In this document: piece by piece, positions 3,220 to 36,702 of the stretch
How positions within the stretch are numbered: position 1 is the stretch's first letter
Layout of the letters: each line of letters opens with the position of its first letter
Virus record (IMG/VR): IMGVR_UViG_3300034279_001376
Coordinates: 44,776-108,775 of that record
Strand: one strand, 5' to 3'
DNA: 64,000 nt
Source: a virus
Lineage: Duplodnaviria > Heunggongvirae > Uroviricota > Caudoviricetes
The notes under the pieces: model-generated
What the model was told of the DNA's origin: nothing
The model's input: only the letters and a program-made list of their open reading frames with translations
Databases searched by the model: none
Made by a program: the position numbers and the translations under genes

Positions 3220-5211
3220 TTACACTTGTTCTACTTTTGCAAGTGGGAAACCACTGCTAAGTTGACCTTTCAAGTTTTCAAACAACACTATGTCATTTTC
3301 GTGAATGTAAAGAGTAATTACCTCTTTTTTACCAGCCATAGGATGGTTTTCAAAACGAGAAATGTGATTGGTAATGTTGATAGCGTAGTAAAAGTCATTT
3401 ACTTTCACACCAAATTCTGTACCTTGACGAGCCAAAAGCAAAAGAGAATCTTTGTCTGTAAGGTTCATAAAACGCTCTTGACGGTCATTCCTAGTGATAA
3501 GAATTTCCTTGATAACGTCATATCCTTTCAAAATTTGATACTCAGCACTCTTAGTTTTACGGAATGTAGGGCTTTTTGAGCCACATACATAAGGTTCACC
3601 ATCAGGCTTGTAAATAGTCACCGAAAGATTTACAGGATCCTTTTCTTGGTAGAAATTAAGATCATAAATACCTTCTGGAAGACCCGGTTCAGGCATGGTC
3701 AAAGTGGTAAACTTAATACCACACTTACAACATTTGTCAGCAGGAGCAGGAGGAACAGGACAACCTGAACCATTTACAGTCCAACCTTCACATGGAATTA
3801 CTTCCCATTTGAAACCTTTCCAAGATGGAAGACTGTTAAATTTAGCCCCATCATGTCCAAATACGTCACAACCATCTACAAGAAGATTGTCACAGTATTG
3901 GGTTACATCGAATCGGATAATACAAGCGGTACTACCAGCATCAACCAAAAGAGTACCGGGTACAATTTCAGGGTTACCAGCGTAATAAGCCTGAATTTCA
4001 GCCAACTCTTCTGGATTTGATTGACAGTCAGCATTTTGCTTGGTCAAAGTCAAAGCACGAGTAATTTTGAAACTAGTACCAGCAGAAACCCACGCAGTAG
4101 TAATAGGAGCAGTTTGAGTACATTTTGCAGTAGTCAAGTCTAAGTCTTTTACAATACGTGCATCACCCGTAGGAGCAGTTAGTTTAGCAGAACTCACCAC
4201 ATAGTAAGTACTTGTTCCAAAACTGAAATTTTCTTTCTTAGCATAAGTAGCAGTTGCAAAAACAGTTTGCACTGCTGTCAACTGTGCTCCCAAAGTTACA
4301 TCAGCATTGGTGTTGTCAATCTCAACCACATAAGCAAACCCAGCAGCCACTGATGTAAAACCAGCAGGACAACTTGTACAGTCACGCACAGTAGTCAAAG
4401 ACTGGCTGTATGCAGCAGGTGCAGCAGTAGCAGCCAATTGAGTAAACTCATACGTAGTAAAAGGTGCTTTACGTTCTCTCACTTTAATAGTGGGAGTGTA
4501 CTGTGCTTGAACCTTTGCCATGTCCACTGCGTCTCCGTTGTCACACACAGTAAGTGTGTAAGTAGTGAAGTTAGTTTTTGCAGGAACACTCAAAGCAGGG
4601 GAACAAGAAATAAGTTTTTCTACTTTGTAAAAACGTTTTACCCAGAAAAGATCCGAGTCAAAACGTGCCATAAGGTCATCAATTACATAACTGCAATCAA
4701 TTTTACCATCCACGCAACCGCATGAAGCATCACAACATGGAGTATCTACTGATACTATTTCATTACGCTCATACGCACCAAAAACATTCTGTACATTTTG
4801 GCCTTGTACATTGATTTGAAACTTGTAGTTTTTACCACATTCAAAATTCAAACTTTCACAGTCATCCAAGCCATTCCAGCCGAGGTAGTAAACTTGTTCG
4901 AGGTTTTGTTTTTGTGGTTTTACAAATTTCAACTTTGCGATATTGCCCAAATCCGTAGATTTGAAAGAAATATCAGAGTTTAGAGAGTTGTACAATTTGT
5001 TAACTCGTTGCCCATCAGTTGCTTGTGGTGCATTGGGAGAACCTACTGCAAAGTAAGCATCACCAGTTAGTGCACTCACATTGATTGTTTTGTGGGTTTC
5101 CTTGTCCACCAAACCAAACTGAAAGGGTTTCAAATCAACAGTTTTAACCCCCGCAGGAGCAATTGATTGAACCACCCAATTTAACTCATTTCTGTCAGAG
5201 AAATTAGCCAT
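3220..5211 (-). CDS. large Cys-rich structural protein (tail/baseplate or receptor-binding candidate)
   Basis: 663 aa ORF with ATG start. Several Cys clusters (CCDASCGCVDGKIDC, CCKCGIKF) and repeated beta-rich Thr/Ser/Ala segments. Followed by the hairpin at 3184-3206. Confidence 0.65.
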   Translation of the reverse strand: MANFSDRNELNWVVQSIAPAGVKTVDLKPFQFGLVDKETHKTINVSALTGDAYFAVGSPNAPQATDGQRVNKLYNSLNSDISFKSTDLGNIAKLKFVKPQKQNLEQVYYLGWNGLDDCESLNFECGKNYKFQINVQGQNVQNVFGAYERNEIVSVDTPCCDASCGCVDGKIDCSYVIDDLMARFDSDLFWVKRFYKVEKLISCSPALSVPAKTNFTTYTLTVCDNGDAVDMAKVQAQYTPTIKVRERKAPFTTYEFTQLAATAAPAAYSQSLTTVRDCTSCPAGFTSVAAGFAYVVEIDNTNADVTLGAQLTAVQTVFATATYAKKENFSFGTSTYYVVSSAKLTAPTGDARIVKDLDLTTAKCTQTAPITTAWVSAGTSFKITRALTLTKQNADCQSNPEELAEIQAYYAGNPEIVPGTLLVDAGSTACIIRFDVTQYCDNLLVDGCDVFGHDGAKFNSLPSWKGFKWEVIPCEGWTVNGSGCPVPPAPADKCCKCGIKFTTLTMPEPGLPEGIYDLNFYQEKDPVNLSVTIYKPDGEPYVCGSKSPTFRKTKSAEYQILKGYDVIKEILITRNDRQERFMNLTDKDSLLLLARQGTEFGVKVNDFYYAINITNHISRFENHPMAGKKEVITLYIHENDIVLFENLKGQLSSGFPLAKVEQV

Positions 5212-6132: not shown

Positions 6133-7809
6133 TTAATAAACAGGTTCAAAAATCATTTTACCTGTGAATGGATTGATTGGTTTAATAATCAAAGATTTTG
6201 TAGGATCTACCAAACGGTAAGCCTTCAATTTCTTTTCTACATAAACTTCAAAACCCGGAATGTCTTTATTACCGTGATGTGGCCTTCCACCCATATCTTC
6301 GTATGCTAATTTACCATTGGTATAGAAGTGGTTGAAATCCCAGTCAGCACCATAAACCAATTCTTCTACGTTACCACCTTCACCAGAAAGATCATCAATG
6401 ACCATCATATAAGAACTTAAACGGTGTCCATCATACATAGGGTTGTTGTACTCATTAGAAACGATTGGGTCAAATGCTGGTACGTGTGTAAAGTTTAAAA
6501 TACCATATTCCCAACGATAAGACATAAAGTTTTGAGTGTCAAGATACAACTTCTGATTGTCAGCACCTTTGATGTAATCTTTGGCTTGTGTAATCATGTT
6601 TGCTTGTAAGAACCTGTTACGAATTTGGGTACGGATTAACTTGAGTGCACCAGCACCACAACCAATGGTCATTTCCTGAACTCCATAAGGGTCTATTTTG
6701 TCTTTCAAACGAGACAACAAAAGTGCTTCAAGACGCTCAAGAGTGAATTTAGGAATGTTGAAACTTGCGTAAGAGCCCAAGTTAAACTGATGGAACAAAC
6801 CGATTGGCAGATTAACCTCAGTTTTACCATCCACCTTCATTGTGCCACCAGAACCCCAGATTGCGTAATAGTCCACATCACGCTCTACTTCCATCATAGC
6901 AATTGCTTCTACGAGAGGAATGTATGCTTTTTTTACAATGTCTTTTTTAACAAGACCCATTGCTGCTGCTTTGTCAGTCTTGAAGTGGTTCATGTACACA
7001 TCAATAGGACTAGTACCACGCATGTAAGCATCACTTGCTGGTGAACCGGGTGCAAATTGATACATTTCACACACTTGACGGTACTCTTGAAGAGACTTAG
7101 TAATATGGCCTGATACTTGAGAATAAGCAGCATCACGTGTTACACTGAAAGATTTGTGTGCATGACCCTCACCTACGTGCAAGTAATACTCTTTAAATCC
7201 ACTGGTGATAGGCGCAAGACTGTCATAAGTGCTGGAAAACTCCGAACCAATAGAACCAGTCCTAAAATAAATAGTACCTGCTTGCAACATCTCCTTGGGG
7301 AAGTACTTGTACTTTCCGTTAGTAGAATTCATGCGTACAGTGTACACAAAACCTGTTGCTGGATTGCCCGTAATTTCATCAGGTGTAACTACAAGTTCCA
7401 ATGCTAGATGCTTATCTGGGGTGATGATTGCACCATTACCAAAAGAACGCTTGTTAGAAAGGATCTTAAAGGTGGTTCCATCAATACCCGGAGTTTCTGT
7501 GTTGGAAATGTCTTTCAACAACTTGGTAGGCTGAGAAGCAATAGGGTATTGAAAGCGAGCAATATGCCCATCAATCATGGTACGCTTAACACCTTGTTTG
7601 GTATTAATCATGTCCCAAATACCGTTACGCTCCATAAAGCCAGTTGTAATCCAAGGTATAATCATACCCAAATCTGTACTGTCCGAAAAACGGTCAGTTT
7701 GGGAGTTCATGCGCAACAAGTGACCAGTGTCCAAGTTGTGCATTTCGGCATTAAATTCTTTGGTTTGTAAAAAGATGCCATTGTACAAACCCGTCTGTGG
7801 TAAATTCAT
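6133..7809 (-). CDS. putative major capsid protein
   Basis: 558 aa ORF with ATG start, in the canonical position after portal and scaffold. The size is compatible with T4 gp23-like or large HK97-fold capsid proteins. No direct motif proof. Confidence 0.5.
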   Translation of the reverse strand: MNLPQTGLYNGIFLQTKEFNAEMHNLDTGHLLRMNSQTDRFSDSTDLGMIIPWITTGFMERNGIWDMINTKQGVKRTMIDGHIARFQYPIASQPTKLLKDISNTETPGIDGTTFKILSNKRSFGNGAIITPDKHLALELVVTPDEITGNPATGFVYTVRMNSTNGKYKYFPKEMLQAGTIYFRTGSIGSEFSSTYDSLAPITSGFKEYYLHVGEGHAHKSFSVTRDAAYSQVSGHITKSLQEYRQVCEMYQFAPGSPASDAYMRGTSPIDVYMNHFKTDKAAAMGLVKKDIVKKAYIPLVEAIAMMEVERDVDYYAIWGSGGTMKVDGKTEVNLPIGLFHQFNLGSYASFNIPKFTLERLEALLLSRLKDKIDPYGVQEMTIGCGAGALKLIRTQIRNRFLQANMITQAKDYIKGADNQKLYLDTQNFMSYRWEYGILNFTHVPAFDPIVSNEYNNPMYDGHRLSSYMMVIDDLSGEGGNVEELVYGADWDFNHFYTNGKLAYEDMGGRPHHGNKDIPGFEVYVEKKLKAYRLVDPTKSLIIKPINPFTGKMIFEPVY

Positions 7810-11924: not shown

Positions 11925-14900
11925 TTATTTTCTTTTCTTAAAAGGAGAACCCATTTTCATTACTACTTTTTGCTCTCTTTTTACTCCGTTTTCTCTTACT
12001 TGTCTTTGCTCTTTTACTACTAGATTTCGATTGGTGTTTGATCTGGCTGCAATTAAGGCAAATGTAAATGCAACTAATCGGTCTGTGTTTAACTTAGGGG
12101 TGTATTTGAGCATCTCCTCTAGGAGCATAACATCTCTTAGTCTTGTAACTCCATACACGGGAGTTTTTTCCCCGTCTTTCATTATGTTAAGGATAACTTC
12201 ATCAACATAAGCAACTGCAAAATCTAAAGCCTTTTTTTTAAATTCTCCCTCCATCCTAATTCCTATTTCGTTTACTATGGTAGAATTGGGCATCCATTCG
12301 TTTAGAAGGTATATTTCTTTTCTTTTCATAAACATGTGCCCTAAGTCTTTTCCTATGGCCCATTCGTGAAAACCTGTTACGTTTGATTCTACTGCTATTC
12401 GAGCATTGTAATATTTGCAAAGGTTCATGCACGTTTCGTAAGTTTCTTCCCAAGTTGGATACCTACCTGTGTATCTGGCCACTGGAAAATCACTTACCAT
12501 TTGCCCATTAGCATTTACGTGAGCAGCCTTAAATATAACCACTGACATCAAAGACTTAGAAGTAGTGGTGTTGGTTTGTCTGATAGGGTCAATTCCTGCG
12601 TAATATAAACCCCAAGGTGGATTATCTATTGGTAGTTCATCTACTTCTACTACTCCTCTATTATCCTTAGTGGGGTCAACCTTTAGAGTTGAGATAGGTT
12701 TGTTGTACGAGATTTTGTGGGTGATTTTACTGTCAGTAACTTCCAGTTCTACTGTAAGAGGTTTATAGGTTTGACGAAGTAAAGTCTGGTGTTCTTTTAT
12801 GATTCGAGTGGGGAAAATATTATCCTCCCGGATAGCAAAAGCATCTTGAAGATTAAAAGGATGCTGAGATTTCCAAAGAATGTAATTGTCTTTTTCTCTC
12901 CTTTTTTCGTCTTCTAAGTTAAGATAGTACTTGGCTAATTCTATGTCTGAATTTCCATCCTTATCGTAACACTTAATCTGTTTACCATCAACACTTGCTA
13001 TATAATTCCAAAAGTCTGGGAAAAAGAAACAAATCTCTTCATCTGATTCTACCTCTGAGAATATATCTTTGATCCCTAAGAACCCATAACCAGAAGGATT
13101 GAAAGCAATGTTTTCTAATGGCCCACAATCTTTTAATTCACCCACGGCTCCTGATACTGTAATGTGCCCAGTTTTAACACCTCCCATTTTTGTGGCTGCT
13201 TCTGCAAACTCCAACACTTTGTCTAGGTTTGGAGCAATGCCTGCTTCTTCGTGAAAAAGATCAGTTATGTGACCACCTACTGCTTTTGCAGGGTTCTTTT
13301 TAGTGGTGGCTGCCACTAAACGAGATTTTAATCCTACCCATTTTTTCTTTGTGTTAACTGTACCTTCAATTACACTTCTTTTCTGTTCCCATTCTAGTCC
13401 TGCATCTGGTTCAAATGATCTGTACCAAGGAGTATGCTCATTTAGAAAGTTACGGTAGTTAACAGCAAATTTCCAAGAACCATTAGTGTTTACAAAATCT
13501 TCTTCATATCCTATGACTTTACAAACACTCTGCTTAACAAACCATAGTTTTCTCATTAACTTTGACATTAGTTTCAGTGTGTTATGAGTAAGTACATAGT
13601 CTTTAGTAATGTAAGTATGGCTAGGATGGTCAACTTCAATACAAGTGGACTCTTCTTTTCCAAGTTTTACTACATTAATAATACTGTTTTTTGTACGTCT
13701 TTCTCTGTCTAGTATTTGTCTGTATTTCTTACGCCTTAATCTAAACAACCTTATTTTATTTCCAATACGTACCCTCCAAAATATGTGGTCAGTTTCTTTT
13801 GCTGGTGGAAATTCACAACTATGAACTGGAATCCCCAAAGACCTGCATAATTCTACCACATCTGCTTGAAGTCTTTCGGATGTAGTCGTAAGTTGAATAT
13901 CATAACCTTGTTCAGAAATATACCCGTCTGTATCCATAAGCCCCTGTAATAAGGCTATCCGGTTTTCTACACTAGATTTTAAATAAACCTCTGGAATGAA
14001 TTTGTTGTAGCAAGTCGTACCTGTTAAACCTAACTCCTTTAGTTCTCTTAACAAAGGATTTACACCATATTGAGCGTTTACATATTTAGAATCTAAAGAT
14101 GTAAATCTTTTTGCATACATAATAGTGGCCCGGTAATGATTTTCTGCTTGTTCTCTTTCACCTGTATGGTAATCTTCTCCAAGGTCTTCAAGGACTAAAT
14201 CAAATACTTCTTGGTCTGCTGAGGTCAGCCTACATTGAGATTTGGTGAAAGAACCATCACCTAGTAAAGCACCCAAAGCATACGCAGGGATTGGCACAGT
14301 ATTCTCAGGATAAATAATGGGATCAATTTCCTCCACTCCATACCTATAACCTTTATACTCTTTTTTCTCCCCACTTTTTAAAGTTGCTGTTGCTTTATAA
14401 GTTATGCCTTTTTCTAACATTTGCTTCAAAGACAAAACTTTTAAAGTATTCCTTTCTCGCACCTCCCAGAGATGATTAATACCACATCTTACTTTTCTTT
14501 TGTCCAAAAATTCTATTTCGTAAACATCTTTTACTCCTTGTGGATAAACACCTATTACATTGGTTAACTTGCCATCTTTAGAATAAACTTTGTCTCCTAC
14601 TTTTAAATCTCCAATAGGTCTAAAACCATGTTCTGTGAGTACAGGTTCTGAATTAGGTTGTTCAAAGCCTTTCTGGCGGGCTTTGCAGACAGCAGAGTTT
14701 AGATCAGATAATCTAGCAATTTCGTCATACAAATAAAAATGGTAATCTCCATCCCATAATTCTGCAAAATCCTCCCTACCTTTTAATTTATCTACAATAG
14801 GAGTGTAGTTAAGATACCAATAAAAATCTCCGGGTAAATAAAACTCGTTAATGATTACACCTTGACCTATTTTTTTCTTCTCAAAAGCAAAATGTTCTTT

Positions 14901-15113
14901 GTATTGTTCTGAGTCTTCCGAGAAGTCACAATACCTTCCTGTCGTTTGGAATTTAGTGGCAGGTTCAACCCATAGATAAGTGTCATACAAACCATATTTA
15001 CCCGGTTCTTTGAACTGAGATTTTACGTATGCAAGAAACTCCTTGTCATTTTCGTAAATAGTGTATGACCAAACTCCATTTTTAAGAGTAGGTATTCGCT
15101 TTGTTGTAAACAT
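11925..15113 (-). CDS. terL: terminase large subunit (T4 gp17-like) interrupted by an intein
   Basis: 1062 aa. N-terminal ATPase region with ...CKARQKG P-loop remnant. C-terminal nuclease domain with a YAGIDPIRQ RNaseH-like acidic motif. The internal ~360 aa has hallmarks of a homing-endonuclease intein (see intein feature). Confidence 0.8.
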   Translation of the reverse strand: MFTTKRIPTLKNGVWSYTIYENDKEFLAYVKSQFKEPGKYGLYDTYLWVEPATKFQTTGRYCDFSEDSEQYKEHFAFEKKKIGQGVIINEFYLPGDFYWYLNYTPIVDKLKGREDFAELWDGDYHFYLYDEIARLSDLNSAVCKARQKGFEQPNSEPVLTEHGFRPIGDLKVGDKVYSKDGKLTNVIGVYPQGVKDVYEIEFLDKRKVRCGINHLWEVRERNTLKVLSLKQMLEKGITYKATATLKSGEKKEYKGYRYGVEEIDPIIYPENTVPIPAYALGALLGDGSFTKSQCRLTSADQEVFDLVLEDLGEDYHTGEREQAENHYRATIMYAKRFTSLDSKYVNAQYGVNPLLRELKELGLTGTTCYNKFIPEVYLKSSVENRIALLQGLMDTDGYISEQGYDIQLTTTSERLQADVVELCRSLGIPVHSCEFPPAKETDHIFWRVRIGNKIRLFRLRRKKYRQILDRERRTKNSIINVVKLGKEESTCIEVDHPSHTYITKDYVLTHNTLKLMSKLMRKLWFVKQSVCKVIGYEEDFVNTNGSWKFAVNYRNFLNEHTPWYRSFEPDAGLEWEQKRSVIEGTVNTKKKWVGLKSRLVAATTKKNPAKAVGGHITDLFHEEAGIAPNLDKVLEFAEAATKMGGVKTGHITVSGAVGELKDCGPLENIAFNPSGYGFLGIKDIFSEVESDEEICFFFPDFWNYIASVDGKQIKCYDKDGNSDIELAKYYLNLEDEKRREKDNYILWKSQHPFNLQDAFAIREDNIFPTRIIKEHQTLLRQTYKPLTVELEVTDSKITHKISYNKPISTLKVDPTKDNRGVVEVDELPIDNPPWGLYYAGIDPIRQTNTTTSKSLMSVVIFKAAHVNANGQMVSDFPVARYTGRYPTWEETYETCMNLCKYYNARIAVESNVTGFHEWAIGKDLGHMFMKRKEIYLLNEWMPNSTIVNEIGIRMEGEFKKKALDFAVAYVDEVILNIMKDGEKTPVYGVTRLRDVMLLEEMLKYTPKLNTDRLVAFTFALIAARSNTNRNLVVKEQRQVRENGVKREQKVVMKMGSPFKKRK
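13581..14651 (-). mobile_element. intein with LAGLIDADG homing endonuclease inside the terminase ATPase domain (approximate boundaries)
   Basis: Hint-like N-block (EPVLTEHGFRPIGDLKVGDKVYSKDG). Two LAGLIDADG motifs (LGALLGDGSF and LQGLMDTDGYI). C-terminal block ...YVLTHN followed by Thr (+1 extein residue). The N-terminal boundary is uncertain; Ser155 is a candidate first residue. Confidence 0.6.
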
Positions 15114-26875: not shown

Positions 26876-27108
26876 ACTTTACGACATTAATTATAAAACT
26901 CTTTCTAGGAGTTCTTGTACTTTTTTTGCCTATGCTTATTTTTGCAGTAATAGTAGGCTTTTATTACATACAATTTTCATTTTTAGATTCTATAAAATGG
27001 ATAATGGGTAAAAACAATCCATTTGTTTTTCCTTTTTCCCTGTTTTATTATTTTTGGACTATTTTTACTTGTGTCTTCACAATCAAAAGAATAAAAAGCA
27101 ATGAATAA
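26872..27108 (+). CDS. small integral membrane protein
   Basis: 78 aa with 2-3 hydrophobic helices (LFLGVLVLFLPMLIFAVIVGFYYI). ATGA overlap with the upstream gene. Confidence 0.5.
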   Translation: MNFTTLIIKLFLGVLVLFLPMLIFAVIVGFYYIQFSFLDSIKWIMGKNNPFVFPFSLFYYFWTIFTCVFTIKRIKSNE

Positions 27109-27433
27109 AATTACAGTAAAGCAAATCCAAAAGATAATTGAGGAAATACAACCTCAAAAACTTACAGAAATATTTAGTCAATCAGAAGGAGCCACAACCA
27201 TTGTCTTTTGGGCAGGTGGTGTATTTCCTGACAGATATGTAGCAGATTGGAGAAACACAAAACCTCGACAAAGGTTTTGTTACAAGGAAAGTAATCTGAT
27301 TCGTGCAGTACACCAATACAATTTAATGGTGGAAATGCACAATGAGGACACAGAAAAAGAAGAATTAAGCGGTAGTTGTAATGATGCCCAACCGGGAAGT
27401 AATTTTCTGGTTGGGCTACTGCTTTCACAATAA
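27101..27433 (+). CDS. hypothetical protein
   Basis: 110 aa ORF with ATG start. Confidence 0.5.
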   Translation: MNKITVKQIQKIIEEIQPQKLTEIFSQSEGATTIVFWAGGVFPDRYVADWRNTKPRQRFCYKESNLIRAVHQYNLMVEMHNEDTEKEELSGSCNDAQPGSNFLVGLLLSQ

Positions 27434-27445
27434 AAAACTAAAATC

Positions 27446-27808
27446 ATGCAAAAAAGCGTAATGATGACCGCAACAGTTGGTCTTGTAGCAGGTTACAATA
27501 ATAATGTAAATCCAGATTGGACACATGTTAATTTTCTACTTTGGAAAATGAGCCAAGAACATGTTCCCTTTTGTTACCAATTTTCCAGAGTTGTTTATCC
27601 TTCTAAATGGGGCTGCCCTGCTGGTGGTGAGCATGTAGTTGTTATAACAGCAATGGCAAATCCTGAATTTGAAAAAGATATAGAAGCATGGAAAGAAAAA
27701 TATGTTCAAGCAATCGAATGGCTTTCAATTGCACTAAAACAAGAAACGTCTCAAATATTTTTTCAAGAAGGAGAATTTAAATACTTAAAGCCATCCGGTA
27801 AGGCGTAA
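27446..27808 (+). CDS. hypothetical protein
   Basis: 120 aa ORF with ATG start. Confidence 0.5.
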   Translation: MQKSVMMTATVGLVAGYNNNVNPDWTHVNFLLWKMSQEHVPFCYQFSRVVYPSKWGCPAGGEHVVVITAMANPEFEKDIEAWKEKYVQAIEWLSIALKQETSQIFFQEGEFKYLKPSGKA

Positions 27809-27829
27809 ACCTGAAAATTTAGAAACAAC

Positions 27830-28712
27830 TTTAAGCAATATCTTTACTAAGCCCTCATTATTCCAGAGCCTCTGGTTAACAGTAATGAAACATGGCAATG
27901 CCAGTAAAGTAAAACCTTAAAGTATATCAAAAGTAATACAAAACTCATAGGATAGTTGCGAGATGTAGATGCTGCTTCTCAGGGAGTAGTTGAGTCAACC
28001 TTGGAATAGCAACAGTGAAGTATTATTTGTTTATAGATAGGCTTGATAACCTATTTTTAAAATTCAAACTAAAATTAAAAATAAGCATGTGGGGCAACAA
28101 GACACTATAAATTGGTTATCGGAAAAAGATGTGATACACATTCCCGCCAATGAATATTATTCTCCTAGTAGTAAAGGTTTAGCCTTTATGAAGCCAGAGT
28201 AGTTTAGTGTTTTTATTGTGCAGACTTGAACAGCGATGGTTAACCCATCTAATCTACATGTGGTAGTGTAGTAGTTCCTGTATTAAGTACCTATGTTAAA
28301 CAACCGTTATTACTTGCGCAGGAACTTGAAACAAACTAACAAGGCGGAGTAATTGTAATAGGTTTGGGCTTTTATTGAATGAAATTACTGACCTGCAAAT
28401 GTAGGTAAGAGTAAGGTAAAGCCTTTAGGGAAGAGATTAATACAGAAAAATCATGCAGTGGTACGGCCTTAATCCGTGCAAATCCAAATCTGTACAGAAC
28501 GGATTCATAACCAAATAGTGAATAGGTTATCCCGGCTGTGGGTAAAACAGTAGTCCTTAAAATGGGGGAAGATAACAAGTCATACTTACAAGCCTAGGTA
28601 ATTGTATTTATGGCTAATACGTGGTAGTATGTATGTTATAAACTAAATTAAATAGAGTACAAAATTAGTACTTAAATAGATTTAGTACAGGTTCGATTCC
28701 TGCTTCCTCCGC
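27830..28712 (+). ncRNA. long ORF-free, GC-richer region; candidate large structured ncRNA and/or degenerate tRNA cluster
   Basis: About 900 bp with no plausible ORF; the only table ORF, 28372-28578 (-), looks spurious. Many local inverted repeats (for example gttcctg...caggaac at 28274-28325). Ends in a tRNA-like T-arm GGTTCGATTCC (28690-28700) plus an acceptor-like 3' strand. Confidence 0.3.
28687..28711 (+). other. tRNA-like 3' element: T-stem/loop (acagg-TTCGATT-cctgc) plus 7-nt acceptor-like strand
   Basis: Canonical T-loop TTCGATT with a 4-5 bp stem. No convincing full cloverleaf could be assembled by eye. A distal complement gcggag at 28345-28350 could pair with ctccgc at 28706-28711. 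Confidence 0.3.
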
Positions 28713-28726
28713 TAAACTTTAAAAAC

Positions 28727-29143
28727 ATGAAAAACATGAAATACAGTTTTACAATAAGAATTCACCAAGGTAAACGAACTTGCTTATCTGATTTACAAAG
28801 CCTTGTAATTTCTGAAATAACTATTGTGTCTAAATCTTCTAAATTTGGGGGCTTATGTACACATTTAAGCAATCAAAAGAAATTTGGTTACTCTTTGTCT
28901 TTAAGTAAAAAGTTTTTAAATGTTGGTGGAAGTAATAATTCACCTCGTTTAACATTTAAAGGAGAATACTTAGATATTCAAATCAAAGACTTTCCAAGAT
29001 ACCCTGCATTTTGTCAAGACAAGTATGCGGCTCTTGGTTGCTTAAAAGGGTATGGGTACACAAATCACATCAATAAAGGATTTCCTATTGAATTTCTTTA
29101 TAGAAAAATTGAAATCTTAAACCTTAAACAAAACAAATTATGA
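28727..29143 (+). CDS. hypothetical protein
   Basis: 138 aa with ATG start 15 nt after the tRNA-like element. Confidence 0.45.
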   Translation: MKNMKYSFTIRIHQGKRTCLSDLQSLVISEITIVSKSSKFGGLCTHLSNQKKFGYSLSLSKKFLNVGGSNNSPRLTFKGEYLDIQIKDFPRYPAFCQDKYAALGCLKGYGYTNHINKGFPIEFLYRKIEILNLKQNKL

Positions 29144-29648: not shown

Positions 29649-30437
29649 ATGGTAAAAGAAATCAAAAAGATAGTTACCCATGATGGGGTGTTTCACGCAG
29701 ATGAAGTAGTAGCAGTAGCACTACTTAGATTACAAGGCTGGGATTGTCCAGTTATCAGGACTAGAGACAAGCAAATTGTTTCTGAGGCTTTGCTTGACCC
29801 AGAAATCATGGTGCTAGATCAAGGAGGGGAATATAATATCTCTATGTTAAACCTTGACCACCATCAAGACATGAACTTACAAAGTGCAGCAGGTTTAGTT
29901 TGGAGTAATTTTAACGCTTATATTCTTTCTGATTTAGCCAAAGGCTTTTTTCAGGAGTTTATAAACGGTATTGATAAATGGGACACAAATCGGGATGGTT
30001 GCCACGGTGAGTGGAAACAGGAGTTCAGAAATTTCTCACATCTTATAGCGGGATTTAATAGGGATCCTTTCGATAGTGTTCGTCAAGATACACAATTTGA
30101 AAGGGCAGTTCAATTTGCTATGGCTGTTATTAGGAACGAAAAAGAATCTGCTCTTGAAAAAGCCAAAGCAGAAAAAGAGTATTCCGAACACACAGTAATA
30201 AATGGAATAGCATTGTTTCCTAAGTTCTCCCCTATTTGGAAAGAAAAAGGGGAATATGAATTTGCAGTCATGCCTCATCCTAGCGGATGGCAAGTAGTGG
30301 CTGCAAAAATTGTAAACAAAGTAGTACCGGAAACTGCAAAAGATTTTGAAGGGTTTATTTTCCGACATAATACTGGGTTTATGGCTACCTTTGACACCTT
30401 AGATTCTATTATGGAGTTTGTTAAAACATTTAAATAA
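29649..30437 (+). CDS. MYG1 / UPF0160-family metal-dependent hydrolase-like protein
   Basis: 262 aa. N-terminal THDGVFHADEVVAVALL matches the UPF0160 (MYG1 exonuclease family) signature T-H-x-G-x-F-H-x-D-E. Downstream His/Asp-rich LDHHQD. Confidence 0.6.
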   Translation: MVKEIKKIVTHDGVFHADEVVAVALLRLQGWDCPVIRTRDKQIVSEALLDPEIMVLDQGGEYNISMLNLDHHQDMNLQSAAGLVWSNFNAYILSDLAKGFFQEFINGIDKWDTNRDGCHGEWKQEFRNFSHLIAGFNRDPFDSVRQDTQFERAVQFAMAVIRNEKESALEKAKAEKEYSEHTVINGIALFPKFSPIWKEKGEYEFAVMPHPSGWQVVAAKIVNKVVPETAKDFEGFIFRHNTGFMATFDTLDSIMEFVKTFK

Positions 30438-30951: not shown

Positions 30952-31146
30952 AACAGAGACGAAGTTTGTCTTATACTTCGGGTATAAGCAAACACCAGTG
31001 AGGTGCAAACACCCGTTTATCAGTTTCTACCCAATAGGTTGTAAGTGAAACTGTACTAGCCCCGTTCATATAGCAGACAATATGCTCCTCTTCTAAGGGA
31101 GTCACAGGGGTGCAAATCCTCTACGGGGTACTAAATTATTAAAATT

Positions 31147-32470: not shown

Positions 32471-32603
32471 ACAAAAGTTTATTGAATGGAATCAGGTGGT
32501 GGAAAGTTAAACACTAATCAAAAGACTTTGAACTAGAAATAGTTGTAACGCGAGGGCATTGAGCGAGGTAAGGTCTGATGGTAGCAATTTTATGCAGTTG
32601 CTT

Positions 32604-32637
32604 GAGAGTTCGAGACTCTCCCTGATTACGAAATATT
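32604..32637 (+). repeat. module copy 1: T-arm-like hairpin (gagag-TTCGAGA-ctctc) immediately followed by the conserved 15-mer cctgattacgaaata
   Basis: 5-bp stem with a TTCRANY-type loop, then a 15-nt block shared exactly with copy 2. Confidence 0.5.
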
Positions 32638-32719
32638 AGAAAAGATCGGGTAGCAGAATGTAAATGCAGTGGTATGCAAGGTTTACCACGTTAGGTAAAA
32701 GGCAGGAATGCACCAATGT

Positions 32720-32752
32720 CTCTAACACTAAAGGTTCAAGTCCTTTCCTGAT
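32720..32752 (+). repeat. module copy 2: T-arm-like hairpin (aaagg-TTCAAGT-ccttt) followed by cctgattacgaaata
   Basis: Same architecture as copy 1 with a different stem sequence (compensatory) and an identical 3' 15-mer. Confidence 0.5.
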
Positions 32753-32784
32753 TACGAAATAATTGGAAAAACTTGTTAGATTTA

Positions 32785-32814
32785 GACTGTCTTGTTGTAA
32801 AGCAAGGCAGTCTT
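32785..32814 (+). other. 11-bp hairpin agactgtcttg-ttgtaaag-caaggcagtct
   Basis: Stem of 10 Watson-Crick pairs plus one U-G wobble, inside the ORF-free region. Confidence 0.4.
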
Positions 32815-32877
32815 ATACCTAAATAGATTCTATTGAGGTAAAAAGTTTGCTATAAATCAGCAAACTATAAAAGTATG

Positions 32878-32947
32878 AGGGAGTTAGCCTTAAAGTAAAG
32901 GCCAGTATTTGCTATACGGTATGCTGGTTCAAATCCAGTACTCTCTC
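32878..32947 (+). tRNA. tRNA-like element (possible degenerate tRNA, anticodon-loop reading UGC)
   Basis: Acceptor agggagt/actctct (7 bp including one G-U). U8. D-stem gcct/aggc. T-arm gctgg-TTCAAAT-ccagt. The anticodon stem has an A-G mismatch, the variable loop is only 3 nt and position 37 is a pyrimidine, so it is non-canonical. Confidence 0.25.
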
Positions 32948-33017
32948 CCGAAACGGGTTGGTAACCTAGGACTGCTGTAAAGTGGGACTAGGATTTTTAA
33001 CATTTAACATTTAAAAA

Positions 33018-35808: not shown

Positions 35809-35819
35809 TGTAATAAGAG

Positions 35820-36405
35820 TATGAGTGGAATTGAAACCAACGAATTATACTCAGAATACTACACCGTCCATCAGGCATTAAGATTCTGGAAGATGTAGTT
35901 TTACAAAGATTGAAGTTTTACTATTTACACGGCAAAACATTGAGCCGGATACTTAATGTGGGGCTTAGTCACGCACCAACACAAAAGGAGTTGGAACTGT
36001 ATCAAAATATTAACCTTGAATTGACAAGGTGTTCATACCTAATTATCCGACTTGTTGTTGGGTTCTAATAGGTGGGTAAGTTGAACGGAGTAATCCTAGA
36101 CACACTTTTCCCTTGAGAAAGGAAACCATGTCTTGAAAGAGTAAGCATGTACTCTTAAAGTGTGAATGAGCCAATATCCGTGAGGACTTGGGTACGAAAG
36201 TATTTCTCAGCAAGTAGTAACAAACACTAAAATTGAAGTTATGACCTCTTAATTAAAGTCGTTACAGTGAAAATTATTATTACGTGACCCTAACTTACAG
36301 CAATGCAATGGTAGCATTGTATAATACACTAATCCGCATTTGTATTTATATTTATACAAGGAAACGAAAAAGGGTGTAAGAGGGTGCTAAAACAAACAAA
36401 AATTA
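35820..36405. ncRNA. ORF-free, GC-richer ~590-bp region; candidate structured ncRNA
   Basis: No ORF of 60 aa or more on either strand. Shares an atggtagca(t)t-like motif with region 32571-32590 (a tggtag D-loop-like motif). Directly precedes a KxFW-family gene. Confidence 0.25.
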
Positions 36406-36408
36406 ATT

Positions 36409-36702
36409 ATGAAACTAAACAAGGAATTTTGGGAGCAGGTTTTAAGTGACTATGAGCATTACACAAATGACAGAAATTCACTAATAACCACTATTTGCGG
36501 AGCCTCTAAACTTTTTGAGGAGGCTTGGGAAAAACAAAGAGAAGAAATCCGAGCATTAGCAAAAGAATTTCTTGATTATTATTGCATAACTAATGTAGAA
36601 TTAGGAGTAAATTTATTGTTTGTAAATAACCCTTATTCTTATGAAGTTGCAATAAAAACAAGAAAAGACTTTTTAAATTATGCAATTCAAAATGCACAAT
36701 AA
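36409..36702 (+). CDS. small protein, 'KxFW' family member 4
   Basis: 97 aa with ATG start. MKLNKEFWEQVLSDYEH...ICGASKLFEEAWEK. Confidence 0.55.
   Translation: MKLNKEFWEQVLSDYEHYTNDRNSLITTICGASKLFEEAWEKQREEIRALAKEFLDYYCITNVELGVNLLFVNNPYSYEVAIKTRKDFLNYAIQNAQ

Follow-up and report, generated by a model that had tools for sequence, protein, structure and literature searches.

To our knowledge, no biological role has been assigned to hatchet ribozymes, which are known only from metagenomic DNA, largely that of crAss-like phages. The canonical hatchet (Rfam RF02678) was described by Weinberg et al. 2015 and Li et al. 2015 (PMC4604424), and a structure is available (PMC6561176). A P0 hairpin is present in about 90% of hatchets, and in vitro the apex of P4 can be dispensed with (PMC4604424). 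Altering the C20-G30 pair, which is important for activity, slows or kills cleavage; between C68 and G69 the ribozyme stays active in vitro when a UUCG hairpin is inserted or the strand is broken (PMC6561176). Theta (minimal HDV-like) ribozymes, which are likewise linked to phage tRNA genes, are thought to act in RNA processing (PMC10879173).

Canonical hatchets on crAss-sized IMG/VR contigs were found among RAGATH, twister and hammerhead RNAs. A same-strand tRNA-Leu(UAA) lay 269-952 nt downstream of 30 of 63 canonical hatchets, and the same tRNA was upstream of 2 of 64 (background, 0.07 tRNA per kb). The window analysed here, a 64,000-nt stretch of DNA from a crAss-like phage (Crass_capsid Pfam match), showed the same layout as gut crAss-like phages: a hatchet upstream of a tRNA-type gene. 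A small ORF sometimes separates hatchet and tRNA, as it does in L018, one of the relatives used below. The hatchet of the window is a conserved RNA of ~525 nt (about 28037-28561) that we read from its sequence as a diverged, insertion-bearing and multi-domain self-cleaving ribozyme of this class, with predicted activity and a probability of about 0.7.

This RNA lies in a gap of 918 nt (27809-28726) that the earlier note had singled out. The note calls it ORF-free, and the gap indeed held no ORF of at least 80 aa on either strand and was the longest internal gap in the window without such ORFs. The general reading was also borne out: the gap is non-coding and contains a large structured RNA on the plus strand, with a tRNA-like unit of acceptor and T arm at the 3' end. 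Each frame of the gap carried 17-28 stops, with all three kinds in every frame, and no stop-codon reassignment therefore yields an ORF. A protein gene in an alternative genetic code is rejected on this ground, and the lineage-specific indels, 50-240 nt long, would not leave a reading frame intact. The sole ORF of at least 50 aa (68 aa, antisense, 28372-28578) overlapped conserved RNA helices and was broken by indels in relatives.

The size of ~900 nt, the phage origin and the proximity to tRNA genes would fit a GOLLD, ROOL or HEARO/OLE-type RNA, and a self-splicing intron was a further candidate. However, Rfam returned no match to GOLLD, ROOL, HEARO, group I-II intron, tmRNA or riboswitch models, whether the gathering score was applied or permissive filters admitted anything at E <= 10. 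The stops of all kinds in every frame and the 50-240-nt indels weigh against a protein gene in another code, and we give this whole group of readings practically no chance. The identities first proposed (GOLLD, ROOL, HEARO, tmRNA, intron) were wrong, and a hatchet had not been considered.

The gap had also been described as GC-richer and dense in hairpins. Its GC content was 0.349, with a window mean of 0.347, at about the 48th percentile of 918-nt windows; the first description does not hold. The second held in part: the plus strand as a whole folded more stably than shuffles (z = -3.4; minus strand, z = -1.0), but much of the gap was near z = 0. Most of the signal lay in the tRNA-like element (z = -5.4 to -6.3), in a stable branched hairpin domain at 27809-27925 (z = -3.4) and in the P4 module (z = -2.9); elsewhere the support is covariation instead. 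The hairpin domain belongs to a plus-strand spacer or 3' UTR (27809-28035) that is present in the window and its relative L034 only, and the remainder of this segment (27926-28035) gave z = -0.9. The spacer is downstream of a gene for a 120-aa protein, for which no homolog was found outside its own cluster. Promoter and terminator scans stayed at chance level and identified none, and a search for repeats or iterons gave only short repeats at chance level. The gap is probably a cassette of non-coding RNA such as crAss-like phages carry, and it would be read from the plus strand along with the small early genes next to it.

Comparative evidence came from the window, L034, L023, L033 and L018: five sequences in only four lineages, two of them close, so that all covariation counts are small. 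The ~525-nt RNA was conserved in the four phage lineages, which are ~25% divergent outside the core. The window and L034 differed over the 918 nt by a single SNP, 28053 A>G. The otherwise SNP-free block runs into coding DNA (27522-28800), suggesting recent recombination, and for this reason the scarcity of SNPs cannot be read plainly as a mark of selection. Six assemblies of the phage, all identical, carried no covariation information. Searches for relatives in INPHARED phages (near and distant DNA comparison, MYG1 protein), in the IMG/VR viral collection through the flanking proteins and MYG1, and in IMG/VR and GTDB genomes through the invariant 3' tail found none; MYG1 homologs at <=50% identity were bacterial.

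The Rfam Hatchet model RF02678 has a gathering score of 51 bits. The window scored 16.4 bits (E 6.3), below that threshold, whereas the ortholog in L018 (3600-3737) scored 56.5 bits and passed it; L033 scored 41.0 bits (E 7e-6). The shortfall in the window tracks insertions in P4 and in loop L2. An independent, sequence-only profile built from 50 IMG/VR hatchets gave 22.7 bits for L018 and 20.8 bits for L033, rising to 25.7 bits when the L2 domain was cut in silico. With this profile the de-inserted core of the window produced fragmentary matches of 3.7 and 4.6-6.2 bits, within the shuffle maximum of 6.7 bits (n=2000). The skeleton of the RNA comprises P0, a predicted P1, P2-P4 and 13 of the 14 highly conserved hatchet nucleotides. 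UGGG, GCAGAC and the A-run were kept in all five sequences, and compensatory changes back P2, P3, the L2 domain and the P4 module.

All parts of the RNA described here lie on the plus strand. A P0 hairpin (AUAGG/CCUAU, 28037-28054) stands just 5' of the predicted cleavage site, with an equivalent hairpin (AUAAGG/CCUUAU) in L023 and L018; the SNP that separates L034 from the window changes a U-A pair of P0 into U.G. The predicted scissile bond, 28053|28054, is at the 5' base of P1. The predicted P1 itself (UUUUUAA/UUAAAAA, 14-nt loop, 28054-28081) directly precedes a 3-nt linker, as in the family model. It has 6-7 bp, is AU-only and showed no covariation, and its loop is unlike the canonical UGAGAAU (canonical P1, 3 or 6 bp). 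The next segment, 28082-28096, was identical to L018 except at C20 and consists of the linker UAA (positions 20-22), the P2 5' strand GCAUG (28085-28089), the conserved core U28-G31, UGGG (28090-28093), and the P3 5' strand GCA (28094-28096).

P2, the 5-bp helix that closes the core, pairs GCAUG with CAUGC (28452-28456). The pairing is ACAUG/CAUGU in L033, a compensatory change from G-C to A-U, and the two types are the two commonest among canonical hatchets. P3 pairs GCA with UGU (28217-28219) and includes the G31-C64 pair and the bulged G63. At its third pair the window, L034 and L023 have A-U, and L033 and L018 have C-G. The 3' strand of P3 belongs to a segment (28217-28227) that continues with G63-C68, GCAGAC (28220-28225, with G63-G66 as GCAG at 28220-28223), and UU. 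P4 follows P3 (28097-28105/28207-28216) and is formed from unrelated sequences in three lineage groups. In the window it carries at its apex a three-way-junction module, segA (28106-28206). The consensus fold of the P4 module (28097-28216) had compensatory changes in 5 of 37 pairs. The module was 98% identical in L023 and 92% in L033, and in L033 it is placed 5' of the cleavage site instead.

Canonical hatchets have a short contiguous L2 (ACNUUAAAAU). In the window ~220 nt separate C68 from the A-run, and this stretch has two parts. The first is an extra 52 nt with two small hairpins (28228-28279), present in the window and L034 only; L023 has GGA at this place, and the insert appears unstructured (z = -0.9). 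The second, which we call Domain X (28280-28443), is a closed, branched domain of 164 nt in the consensus fold of the window, L023 and L033, and is absent from L018. Seven of its 50 pairs showed compensatory double changes, including two in the closing helix, which is GUAUUAA/UUAAUAC in the window (28280-28286/28437-28443) and ACAUUAA/UUAAUGU in L033. The insertion lies at most 2 nt from the position of C68|G69, which makes it plausible, since that site tolerates a hairpin or a break. A scan of IMG/VR for hatchets with L2 inserts of 15-45 nt found no true one, only one canonical copy and one chance match. The 3' part of L2 (AG, then AAAAA at 28446-28450 including A73-A75, then U) and the P2 3' strand complete the core at 28444-28456.

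A 3' module follows (28457-28561), which holds an inner helix, an invariant tail and, around a variable insert, a long-range helix. The long-range helix, UACGGCC/GGCUGUG (28462-28468/28534-28540), persists across the four lineages, and a single C>U change in it gives G.U; the inner helix is AAUCCGU/ACGGAUU (28471-28477/28499-28505). The tail UCCCGGCUGUGGGUAAAACAGUAGUCCUUAAA (28530-28561) was identical across the lineages apart from one substitution in L018. Canonical hatchets also possess a 3' hairpin and a hairpin plus GUCCUYA motif. Compared by blastn with 80 canonical hatchet loci, Domain X and the P4 and 3' modules matched nothing beyond the hatchet core. Possible duplex partners of the invariant tail were also sought, and no consistent site emerged.

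The core departs from the family in the linker. Positions 20-22 are CAA in L033, L018 and 80/80 canonical copies, and UAA in the window, L034 and L023, so that the otherwise invariant C20 is U in the window lineage and the C20-G30 pair, which matters for cleavage, is altered. The core could on this account be a catalytically dead relic, with the RNA kept for a job of Domain X, the P4 module or the 3' tail, such as protein or RNA binding, and the helices serving only as scaffold. The atypical P1 and its loop, the 216 extra nt in L2 and the location of the best-conserved stretch, the 3' tail, outside the ribozyme are in keeping with that account. Against this, the other 13 nucleotides of the catalytic core were unchanged across lineages that are ~25% divergent elsewhere, P2 and P3 pairing survives through compensatory changes, and the insertions occupy the P4 tip and L2, the very sites shown to be dispensable. 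We consider loss of catalysis rather unlikely and favour a hatchet that is still a predicted ribozyme.

The 3' end of the gap is occupied by a tRNA-shaped RNA of 148 nt (28564-28711, plus strand), which has four long arms and no anticodon loop. The T-loop motif reported earlier, GGTTCGATTCC at 28690-28700, was confirmed and occurs nowhere else in the window. It folds into a T arm (CAGG/CCUG, 28688-28702) with the loop UUCGAUU, of the GGUUCGAUUCC type. The acceptor-like strand CUUCCUCC pairs with GGGGGAAG at 28564-28571 to form an acceptor stem with a G3.U70 wobble (28564-28571/28703-28710), after which come G28711 and CUA. Between the 5' acceptor strand and the T arm lie arm I (28575-28605), arm II (28608-28641) and arm III (28642-28686). 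The element ends 15 nt before the next ATG (28727), as stated earlier. It was 87-89% identical in L018, where the cloverleaf topology is conserved: one pair shows a compensatory change, and five single changes leave the structure intact. Where an anticodon would be expected, the arm II loop reads GUGGUA in the window and GCGG in L018, and neither is a 7-nt loop. The suggestion of several divergent or degenerate tRNAs was not upheld: there is only this one tRNA-shaped element. It is absent next to the ribozyme in L023 and L033, and the two elements are therefore not always linked.

Several features recall a true tRNA that decodes and is interrupted by an intervening sequence, or a small charged tmRNA acting in translation or ribosome rescue. 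The T loop is canonical, the acceptor stem has 7-8 bp, and G3.U70 is an identity mark for alanine. Under relaxed settings ARAGORN called a "tRNA-Leu with intron" and a "permuted tmRNA" at the element, and its default threshold sufficed to call a nearby element (32490-32628) as tRNA-Leu with an intron of 46 nt. However, the relaxed calls were of low confidence and not conserved, and with default settings neither ARAGORN, including its tmRNA mode, nor the Rfam tRNA (RF00005) and tmRNA models made any call in the gap. Only the 11-nt T loop matched RF00023, at 7.1 bits. Decoding is opposed by the missing 7-nt anticodon loop at arm II. As to a tmRNA, L018 has G3-C70 in place of G3.U70, which rules out alanine identity through this pair; the tag frame GSMYVIN*, called by ARAGORN at the 70% threshold only, is broken by a 2-nt indel in L018; and 148 nt is too short for a form with pseudoknots. 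A role in translation seems very unlikely.

The 3' 22-mer of the element, GGTTCGATTCCTGCTTCCTCCG, is shared without a mismatch by the 3' end of metagenomic tRNA-Ser genes from bacteria and phages. Such identity could mean that the T-arm/acceptor motif is an attP core, copied from the 3' end of a host tRNA-Ser, and not an RNA gene. Yet the motif sits in a complete and very stable cloverleaf with its 5' strand paired (z about -6), and the partner strand and the arms are conserved and covary in L018. In addition, the matching tRNA-Ser genes were from high-GC organisms unlike the likely host, and no integrase was seen among the ORFs scanned, which were part of the total. An attachment site is a highly improbable explanation, and we retain the reading as a tRNA-shaped RNA.

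These parts suggest how the cassette may work. Once transcribed, the folded hatchet core would cut its own transcript between 28053 and 28054. The upstream mRNA would then have P0 as its last hairpin and a 2',3'-cyclic phosphate at its end, and the downstream RNA would begin at P1 with a 5'-OH. The acceptor/T-arm stack is the least that RNase P and CCA-adding enzymes need for recognition. By keeping this stack, the tRNA-shaped element could be recognised by RNase P, RNase Z and the CCA-adding enzyme, and it would most likely act as a second processing point that frees a ribozyme RNA of ~510 nt, the tRNA-shaped RNA and the downstream mRNA. A bolder and unlikely proposal, which we offer tentatively, is that the hatchet fold serves as the chassis of the ~510-nt RNA. 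The nested modules (the domain in L2, a three-way junction that can move, and at the 3' end the invariant hairpin and GUCCUUA tail) might gate cleavage by a ligand or protein or bear a separate activity. Together with the anticodon-less tRNA-shaped RNAs of the clade, they might then constitute an undescribed RNA-processing or tRNA-decoy system.

This clade shows the hatchet fold tolerating very large natural insertions at two sites that are dispensable at the bench. Insertions of this size at P4 and L2 lead standard models to miss such copies. The conserved modules of the cassette are Domain X, the three-way junction on P4, and the tail with a hairpin and GUCCUYA. The positional link between a hatchet and a class-II tRNA or tRNA-shaped RNA, seen across very distant crAss-like lineages, points to a role in processing or insulating transcripts that contain tRNAs. 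Several anticodon-less, arm-expanded cloverleaf RNAs are carried by the phage clade and are worth study.

Compared with tRNA-like structures (the tmRNA domain, viral 3' TLS, mascRNA-type signals), the element shares the coaxial acceptor/T-arm stack and the canonical T loop, but keeps a full cloverleaf with all four arms lengthened. It possesses no tag ORF, pseudoknots, anticodon or Rfam match, and G3.U70 is not conserved. Theta ribozymes resemble the RNA of the window in cleaving at their own 5' end and in their link to tRNA genes of gut phages, but they lie immediately 3' of tRNAs, trim trailers and have a different fold (PMC10879173). A hatchet about 100-950 nt 5' of a tRNA or tRNA-like gene cannot define the tRNA end directly.

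The gut crAss clusters, with RAGATH-6, -7, -9 and -14, twister, hammerhead, tandem hatchets and tRNA-Leu(UAA), are likewise non-coding islands among small genes. They too have a hatchet upstream of a same-strand class-II tRNA-type gene, and a 3' hairpin and a hairpin plus GUCCUYA after the hatchet. In the window, by contrast, the accessory modules are nested inside the hatchet instead of standing next to it. Models for RAGATH, twister and hammerhead gave no match there, an anticodon-less RNA takes the tRNA position, and blastn found no similarity outside the hatchet core. A further close system is the canonical hatchet itself. The two have in common P0, a predicted P1 hairpin, the 3-nt linker, a 5-bp P2, UGGG, P3 with bulged G63, GCAGAC, the A-run, P4 with a variable tip and an origin in crAss-like phage, and L018 passes the curated threshold. 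They differ in length (~525 nt in the window, about 80-130 in canonical copies) and in the predicted nature of cleavage, in the U at position 20 of the window lineage and in the P1 loop. The 164-nt L2 domain with its 52 nt, the P4 three-way junction (upstream in L033) and the conserved 3' module set the RNA of the window apart from canonical hatchets.

No gene was found at 27809-28726 (918 nt): each of the six frames holds 17-28 stops, all three stop types are present in every frame, and the sole ORF is a 68-aa antisense one. The earlier note had called this the longest non-coding stretch, and it is the longest internal gap in the window free of ORFs of at least 80 aa. It is flanked on the + strand by ORFs of 120 aa (27446-27808, 5') and 138 aa (28727-29143, 3'), and the flanking proteins are orphans. 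The supposed GC enrichment was not seen (0.349 in the gap, 0.347 in the window). The supposed density of hairpins was borne out in part, with better folding than dinucleotide shuffles on the + strand (z = -3.4) and not on the - strand (z = -1.0). Fold signal was concentrated in three pieces: the last 148 nt (z = -6.3), 27809-27925 (-3.4) and 28100-28212 (-2.9).

Rfam at gathering scores returned tRNAs only in the window, and ARAGORN called only tRNA-Arg(UCU) at 31059 and tRNA-Ala(UGC) at 32878, with no call in the gap. GOLLD, ROOL, HEARO, tmRNA and introns, previously offered as candidates, had no Rfam match in the gap at E <= 10; the only relevant line at that threshold was Hatchet ribozyme at 28063-28234 (16.4 bits, E = 6.3). 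The phage, with a genome of about 131 kb, is crAss-like by Pfam (Crass_capsid match on 6133-7809, - strand), with further matches to family-A DNA polymerase and in a large ORF with an intein; INPHARED held no DNA relative. A 1062-aa ORF (11925-15113, - strand) carries LAGLIDADG and Hint-type homing-endonuclease domains and therefore encodes an intein-bearing protein.

Six further assemblies of the same phage were uninformative because they were 100% identical over 4-6 kb. Four informative loci from related phages were reached through homologs of an MYG1-like protein (29649-30437) and a 110-aa protein (27101-27433). L034 holds the whole region, with 96% identity to the window over 27076-29143. 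L023 (86% over 28052-28484) and L033 (73.5% over 28106-28484) hold the core RNA without the tRNA-like element, and L018, whose MYG1 protein is 77% identical, has three short blocks (93-96%) and the tRNA-like element (87%). In a fifth lineage (L019/L027) the entire region is absent. Positions 27809-28035 are confined to the window and L034, and the tRNA-like element was found in the window, L034 and L018 only. This pattern places the conserved unit at about 28037-28561.

Of 2068 positions compared between the window and L034, 80 differ, and a single one of these lies within 27522-28800 (1.28 kb). This near-identical block takes in coding DNA on both sides and has the look of recent recombination, with the ncRNA cassette at the centre of the tract. 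Small ORFs of 61-65 aa, one predicted to be membrane-spanning, sit between RNA modules in some lineages (L018 3421-3606 and 3952-4137; L023 7045-7242) and none in the window; that at L018 3421-3606 splits the P0/P1 leader from the hatchet core. Between the two ncRNA/tRNA-like clusters sits the MYG1/UPF0160-family gene (Pfam E 1e-23). Some members of this family are 3'-5' RNA exonucleases, and the phage protein could possibly process the neighbouring RNAs. Its nearest cellular homologs, at 45-48% identity in the Cytophagales genera Runella and Dyadobacter, hint at the host.

With the Rfam Hatchet model (gathering score 51), L018 passed at 56.5 bits (E ~1e-10) and L033 reached 41.0 bits (E 7e-6). 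When five sequences were placed on the published hatchet numbering (PMC6561176), U28-G31 (UGGG), G63-C68 (GCAGAC) and the A-run with A73-A75 were kept in all five. P2 is GCAUG/CAUGC, with a compensatory ACAUG/CAUGU in L033 alone. For P3, the window, L034 and L023 share GCA/UGU, and L033 and L018 have GCC/GGU by compensatory change; P4 is made from unrelated sequences in each lineage. A P0 hairpin lies 5' of P1, and the lone SNP relative to L034 in 918 nt turns one P0 pair into U.G. The de-inserted window core gave only fragmentary, borderline matches to an independent sequence profile, and the window copy is assigned to the hatchet family because of orthology and the conserved-nucleotide and helix tests, not model score. 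On these sequence comparisons, we identify the core RNA as an insertion-bearing hatchet ribozyme.

In the window, L034, L023 and L033, the P2 3' strand and A-run lie 164-220 nt 3' of GCAGAC. Domain X (28280-28443), located in L2 at most 2 nt from the C68-G69 junction, is closed by a covarying 7-bp helix (GUAUUAA/UUAAUAC vs ACAUUAA/UUAAUGU), and its consensus fold shows compensatory change in 7/50 pairs. Against an independent profile built on 50 IMG/VR hatchets, L033 scored 20.8 bits as it stands and 25.7 bits once domain X was removed in silico. The window and L034 carry an extra 52 nt in L2 (28228-28279); L2 inserts of 15-45 nt were found in no true hatchet in IMG/VR. A three-way-junction module (28106-28206) is carried on the P4 tip, and its closing stem and one hairpin covary (5/37 pairs). 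In L033 this module lies instead 5' of the cleavage site, at the P0 position.

Under the main rival explanation, the core would be a scaffold that has lost catalytic activity and serves another function. The window linker is UAA, not the CAA of 80/80 canonical copies examined, and P1 is an AU-only hairpin of 6-7 bp with a 14-nt loop that differs from canonical UGAGAAU. The C20-G30 pair is important for hatchet activity (PMC6561176). On the other side, a UUCG hairpin insertion, triple substitution or two-piece split at C68-G69 leaves the ribozyme active (PMC6561176), and the hatchet P4 tip is dispensable (PMC4604424). We lean slightly towards a window copy that still self-cleaves.

In the 3' module, a long-range helix after P2 (UACGGCC, 28462-68, with GGCUGUG, 28534-40) is kept in 4/4 lineages and encloses an insert of 65 to ~240 nt. 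The 32-nt tail (28530-28561) is the same in all four lineages bar one L018 substitution; a search for its pairing partner found no consistent one. Canonical gut hatchets carry a hairpin directly 3' of P2 and, ~60-110 nt 3' of P2, a small hairpin with (A/C)GUCCU(C/U)A after it. Of 49 unique canonical hatchets, 16-18 have TAGTCC or AGTCCT in the first 300 nt downstream, and none has either at 300-600 nt. The window tail ends in AGUCCUUAAA, and given the motif 3' of canonical hatchets, the hairpin and GUCCUYA appendage appears to be part of the hatchet unit. The hairpin with (A/C)GUCCU(C/U)A recurs 3' of hatchets in very distant crAss-like lineages.

The T-loop and acceptor strand reported at the 3' end of the gap were confirmed: GGTTCGATTCC occurs once in the window, at 28690-28700. 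Beyond the T arm, CUUCCUCC base-pairs with GGGGGAAG (28564-28571), and the 148 nt spanned fold as a closed multi-arm structure (z ~-5.4). Folded jointly with the L018 ortholog (87-89% identity), it gives a cloverleaf consensus in which three long arms take the D, anticodon and variable positions between acceptor and T arm; the comparison shows one compensatory pair (U-A to G-C), and pairing survives at five single changes. A decoding tRNA was rejected because there is no anticodon: the loop in its place reads GUGGUA (window) or GCGG (L018). A tmRNA was also rejected: the window's G3.U70 corresponds to G3-C70 in L018, so alanine identity is not conserved, and ARAGORN yields a tag frame at the 70% threshold only, broken by a 2-nt indel in L018. 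Rather than the degenerate tRNA array of the earlier note, 28564-28711 is a single tRNA-shaped RNA, neither decoding tRNA, tmRNA nor array. Metagenome tRNA-Ser genes (5' strand GGAGGAA) end in exactly the 22-mer found at its 3' end, which suggests that it derives from a class-II tRNA. A 132-nt relative, in which a Leu/Ser-type D arm is combined with a long 'anticodon' helix, occurs in an unrelated IMG/VR phage (L001).

Other unusual tRNAs and tRNA-like elements were observed. Two IMG/VR phages that encode a suppressor tRNA with anticodon UUA, L008 (3690-3755) and L016, carry an acceptor/T-arm mini-element of about 55 nt, GGGGGUA...GGUUCGAUUCCUGCUUCCUCC, with G3.U70, no other arms and the window's 3' 22-mer. 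A second ORF-free stretch of the window (32471-33017) holds more arm-expanded tRNA-like genes: one called tRNA-Leu(AAG) with a 46-nt 'intron' (32490-32628; ARAGORN, introns allowed) and one scoring 36.6 bits with Rfam tRNA (32644-32754), whose anticodon-like loop has 9 nt and whose variable arm has 37 nt. Both terminate in CCTGATTACGAAAT. The same stretch includes tRNA-Ala(UGC) at 32878-32949. Its modules are gained or lost among L018, L019 and L023. L033 has a tRNA-Arg(UCU)-like gene (3507-3583; Rfam tRNA 31.4 bits) with an 18-nt variable-region insertion and a nearly missing D arm.

A pattern scan of IMG/VR found 85 canonical hatchets, mostly on 50-100 kb contigs. Ten hatchet loci searched with Rfam held dense clusters with RAGATH-6, -7, -9 and -14, twister and hammerhead, together with two to four hatchets, tRNAs and permuted tmRNA. 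A same-strand tRNA-Leu(UAA) lies 269-952 nt downstream of 30/63 hatchets whose 3' flank runs to 1 kb or more, and upstream of 2/64 only (background 0.07 tRNA per kb); these loci are partly non-independent, with ~49 unique hatchets, many from one sample. At some loci (e.g. L039) a small membrane-protein ORF lies between hatchet and tRNA, and the order in L018 is likewise hatchet, 61-aa ORF, tRNA-shaped RNA. From this recurrence we take the window arrangement to be a clade-specific form of hatchet-then-class-II-tRNA. The window modules had no blastn similarity to gut hatchet loci beyond the hatchet core. The gut crAss-like arrays (IMG/VR loci L035-L114; e.g. L057 102-5456, L036 9804-11548) also hold RAGATH-7-assoc, twister-P1, hammerhead type III and tRNA-Leu(UAA), and a conserved unannotated spacer of ~200-280 nt lies between hatchet and tRNA-Leu in gut crAss-like contigs.

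A third ORF-poor stretch of the window, 35809-36408, is a candidate further ncRNA. Identity is 96-98% to L023 and L019 in the 5' block (35924-36010) and 95% to L019 in the 3' block (36378-36414), with an unalignable interior. The stretch contains AAUGUGGGGC, resembling the hatchet 5' core, and GGGUGCUAAAACA; it has no GCAGAC and so fails the nucleotide test for hatchets.

The + strand RNA of ~525 nt thus comprises a hatchet skeleton with three conserved accessory modules and adjoins a tRNA-shaped RNA. We give a probability of roughly 70% to the overall identification: a hatchet-derived RNA plus a tRNA-shaped RNA, with a role in transcript processing. Hatchet cleavage falls at the 5' base of P1 and leaves a 2',3'-cyclic phosphate and a 5'-OH (PMC4604424), and knowledge of the family would therefore place the cut between 28053 and 28054. 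The P0 hairpin would then form the end of the upstream mRNA, with the folded ribozyme at the start of the downstream RNA. An acceptor/T-arm stack suffices for RNase P and 3' processing, so the tRNA-shaped element may be a release point; by general tRNA biology it would free the ~510-nt RNA, itself and the next gene's mRNA with a 15-nt leader.

In the literature and Rfam searched, three features are undescribed: a hatchet with large structured L2 and P4 domains and a conserved 3' module, a positional link of hatchets to tRNA-Leu or tRNA-shaped genes, and the anticodon-less cloverleaf RNAs of this phage clade. Hatchets in crAss-like phages and ribozyme/RAGATH clusters are already known, and hatchets are largely confined to Crassvirales (2026 preprint).
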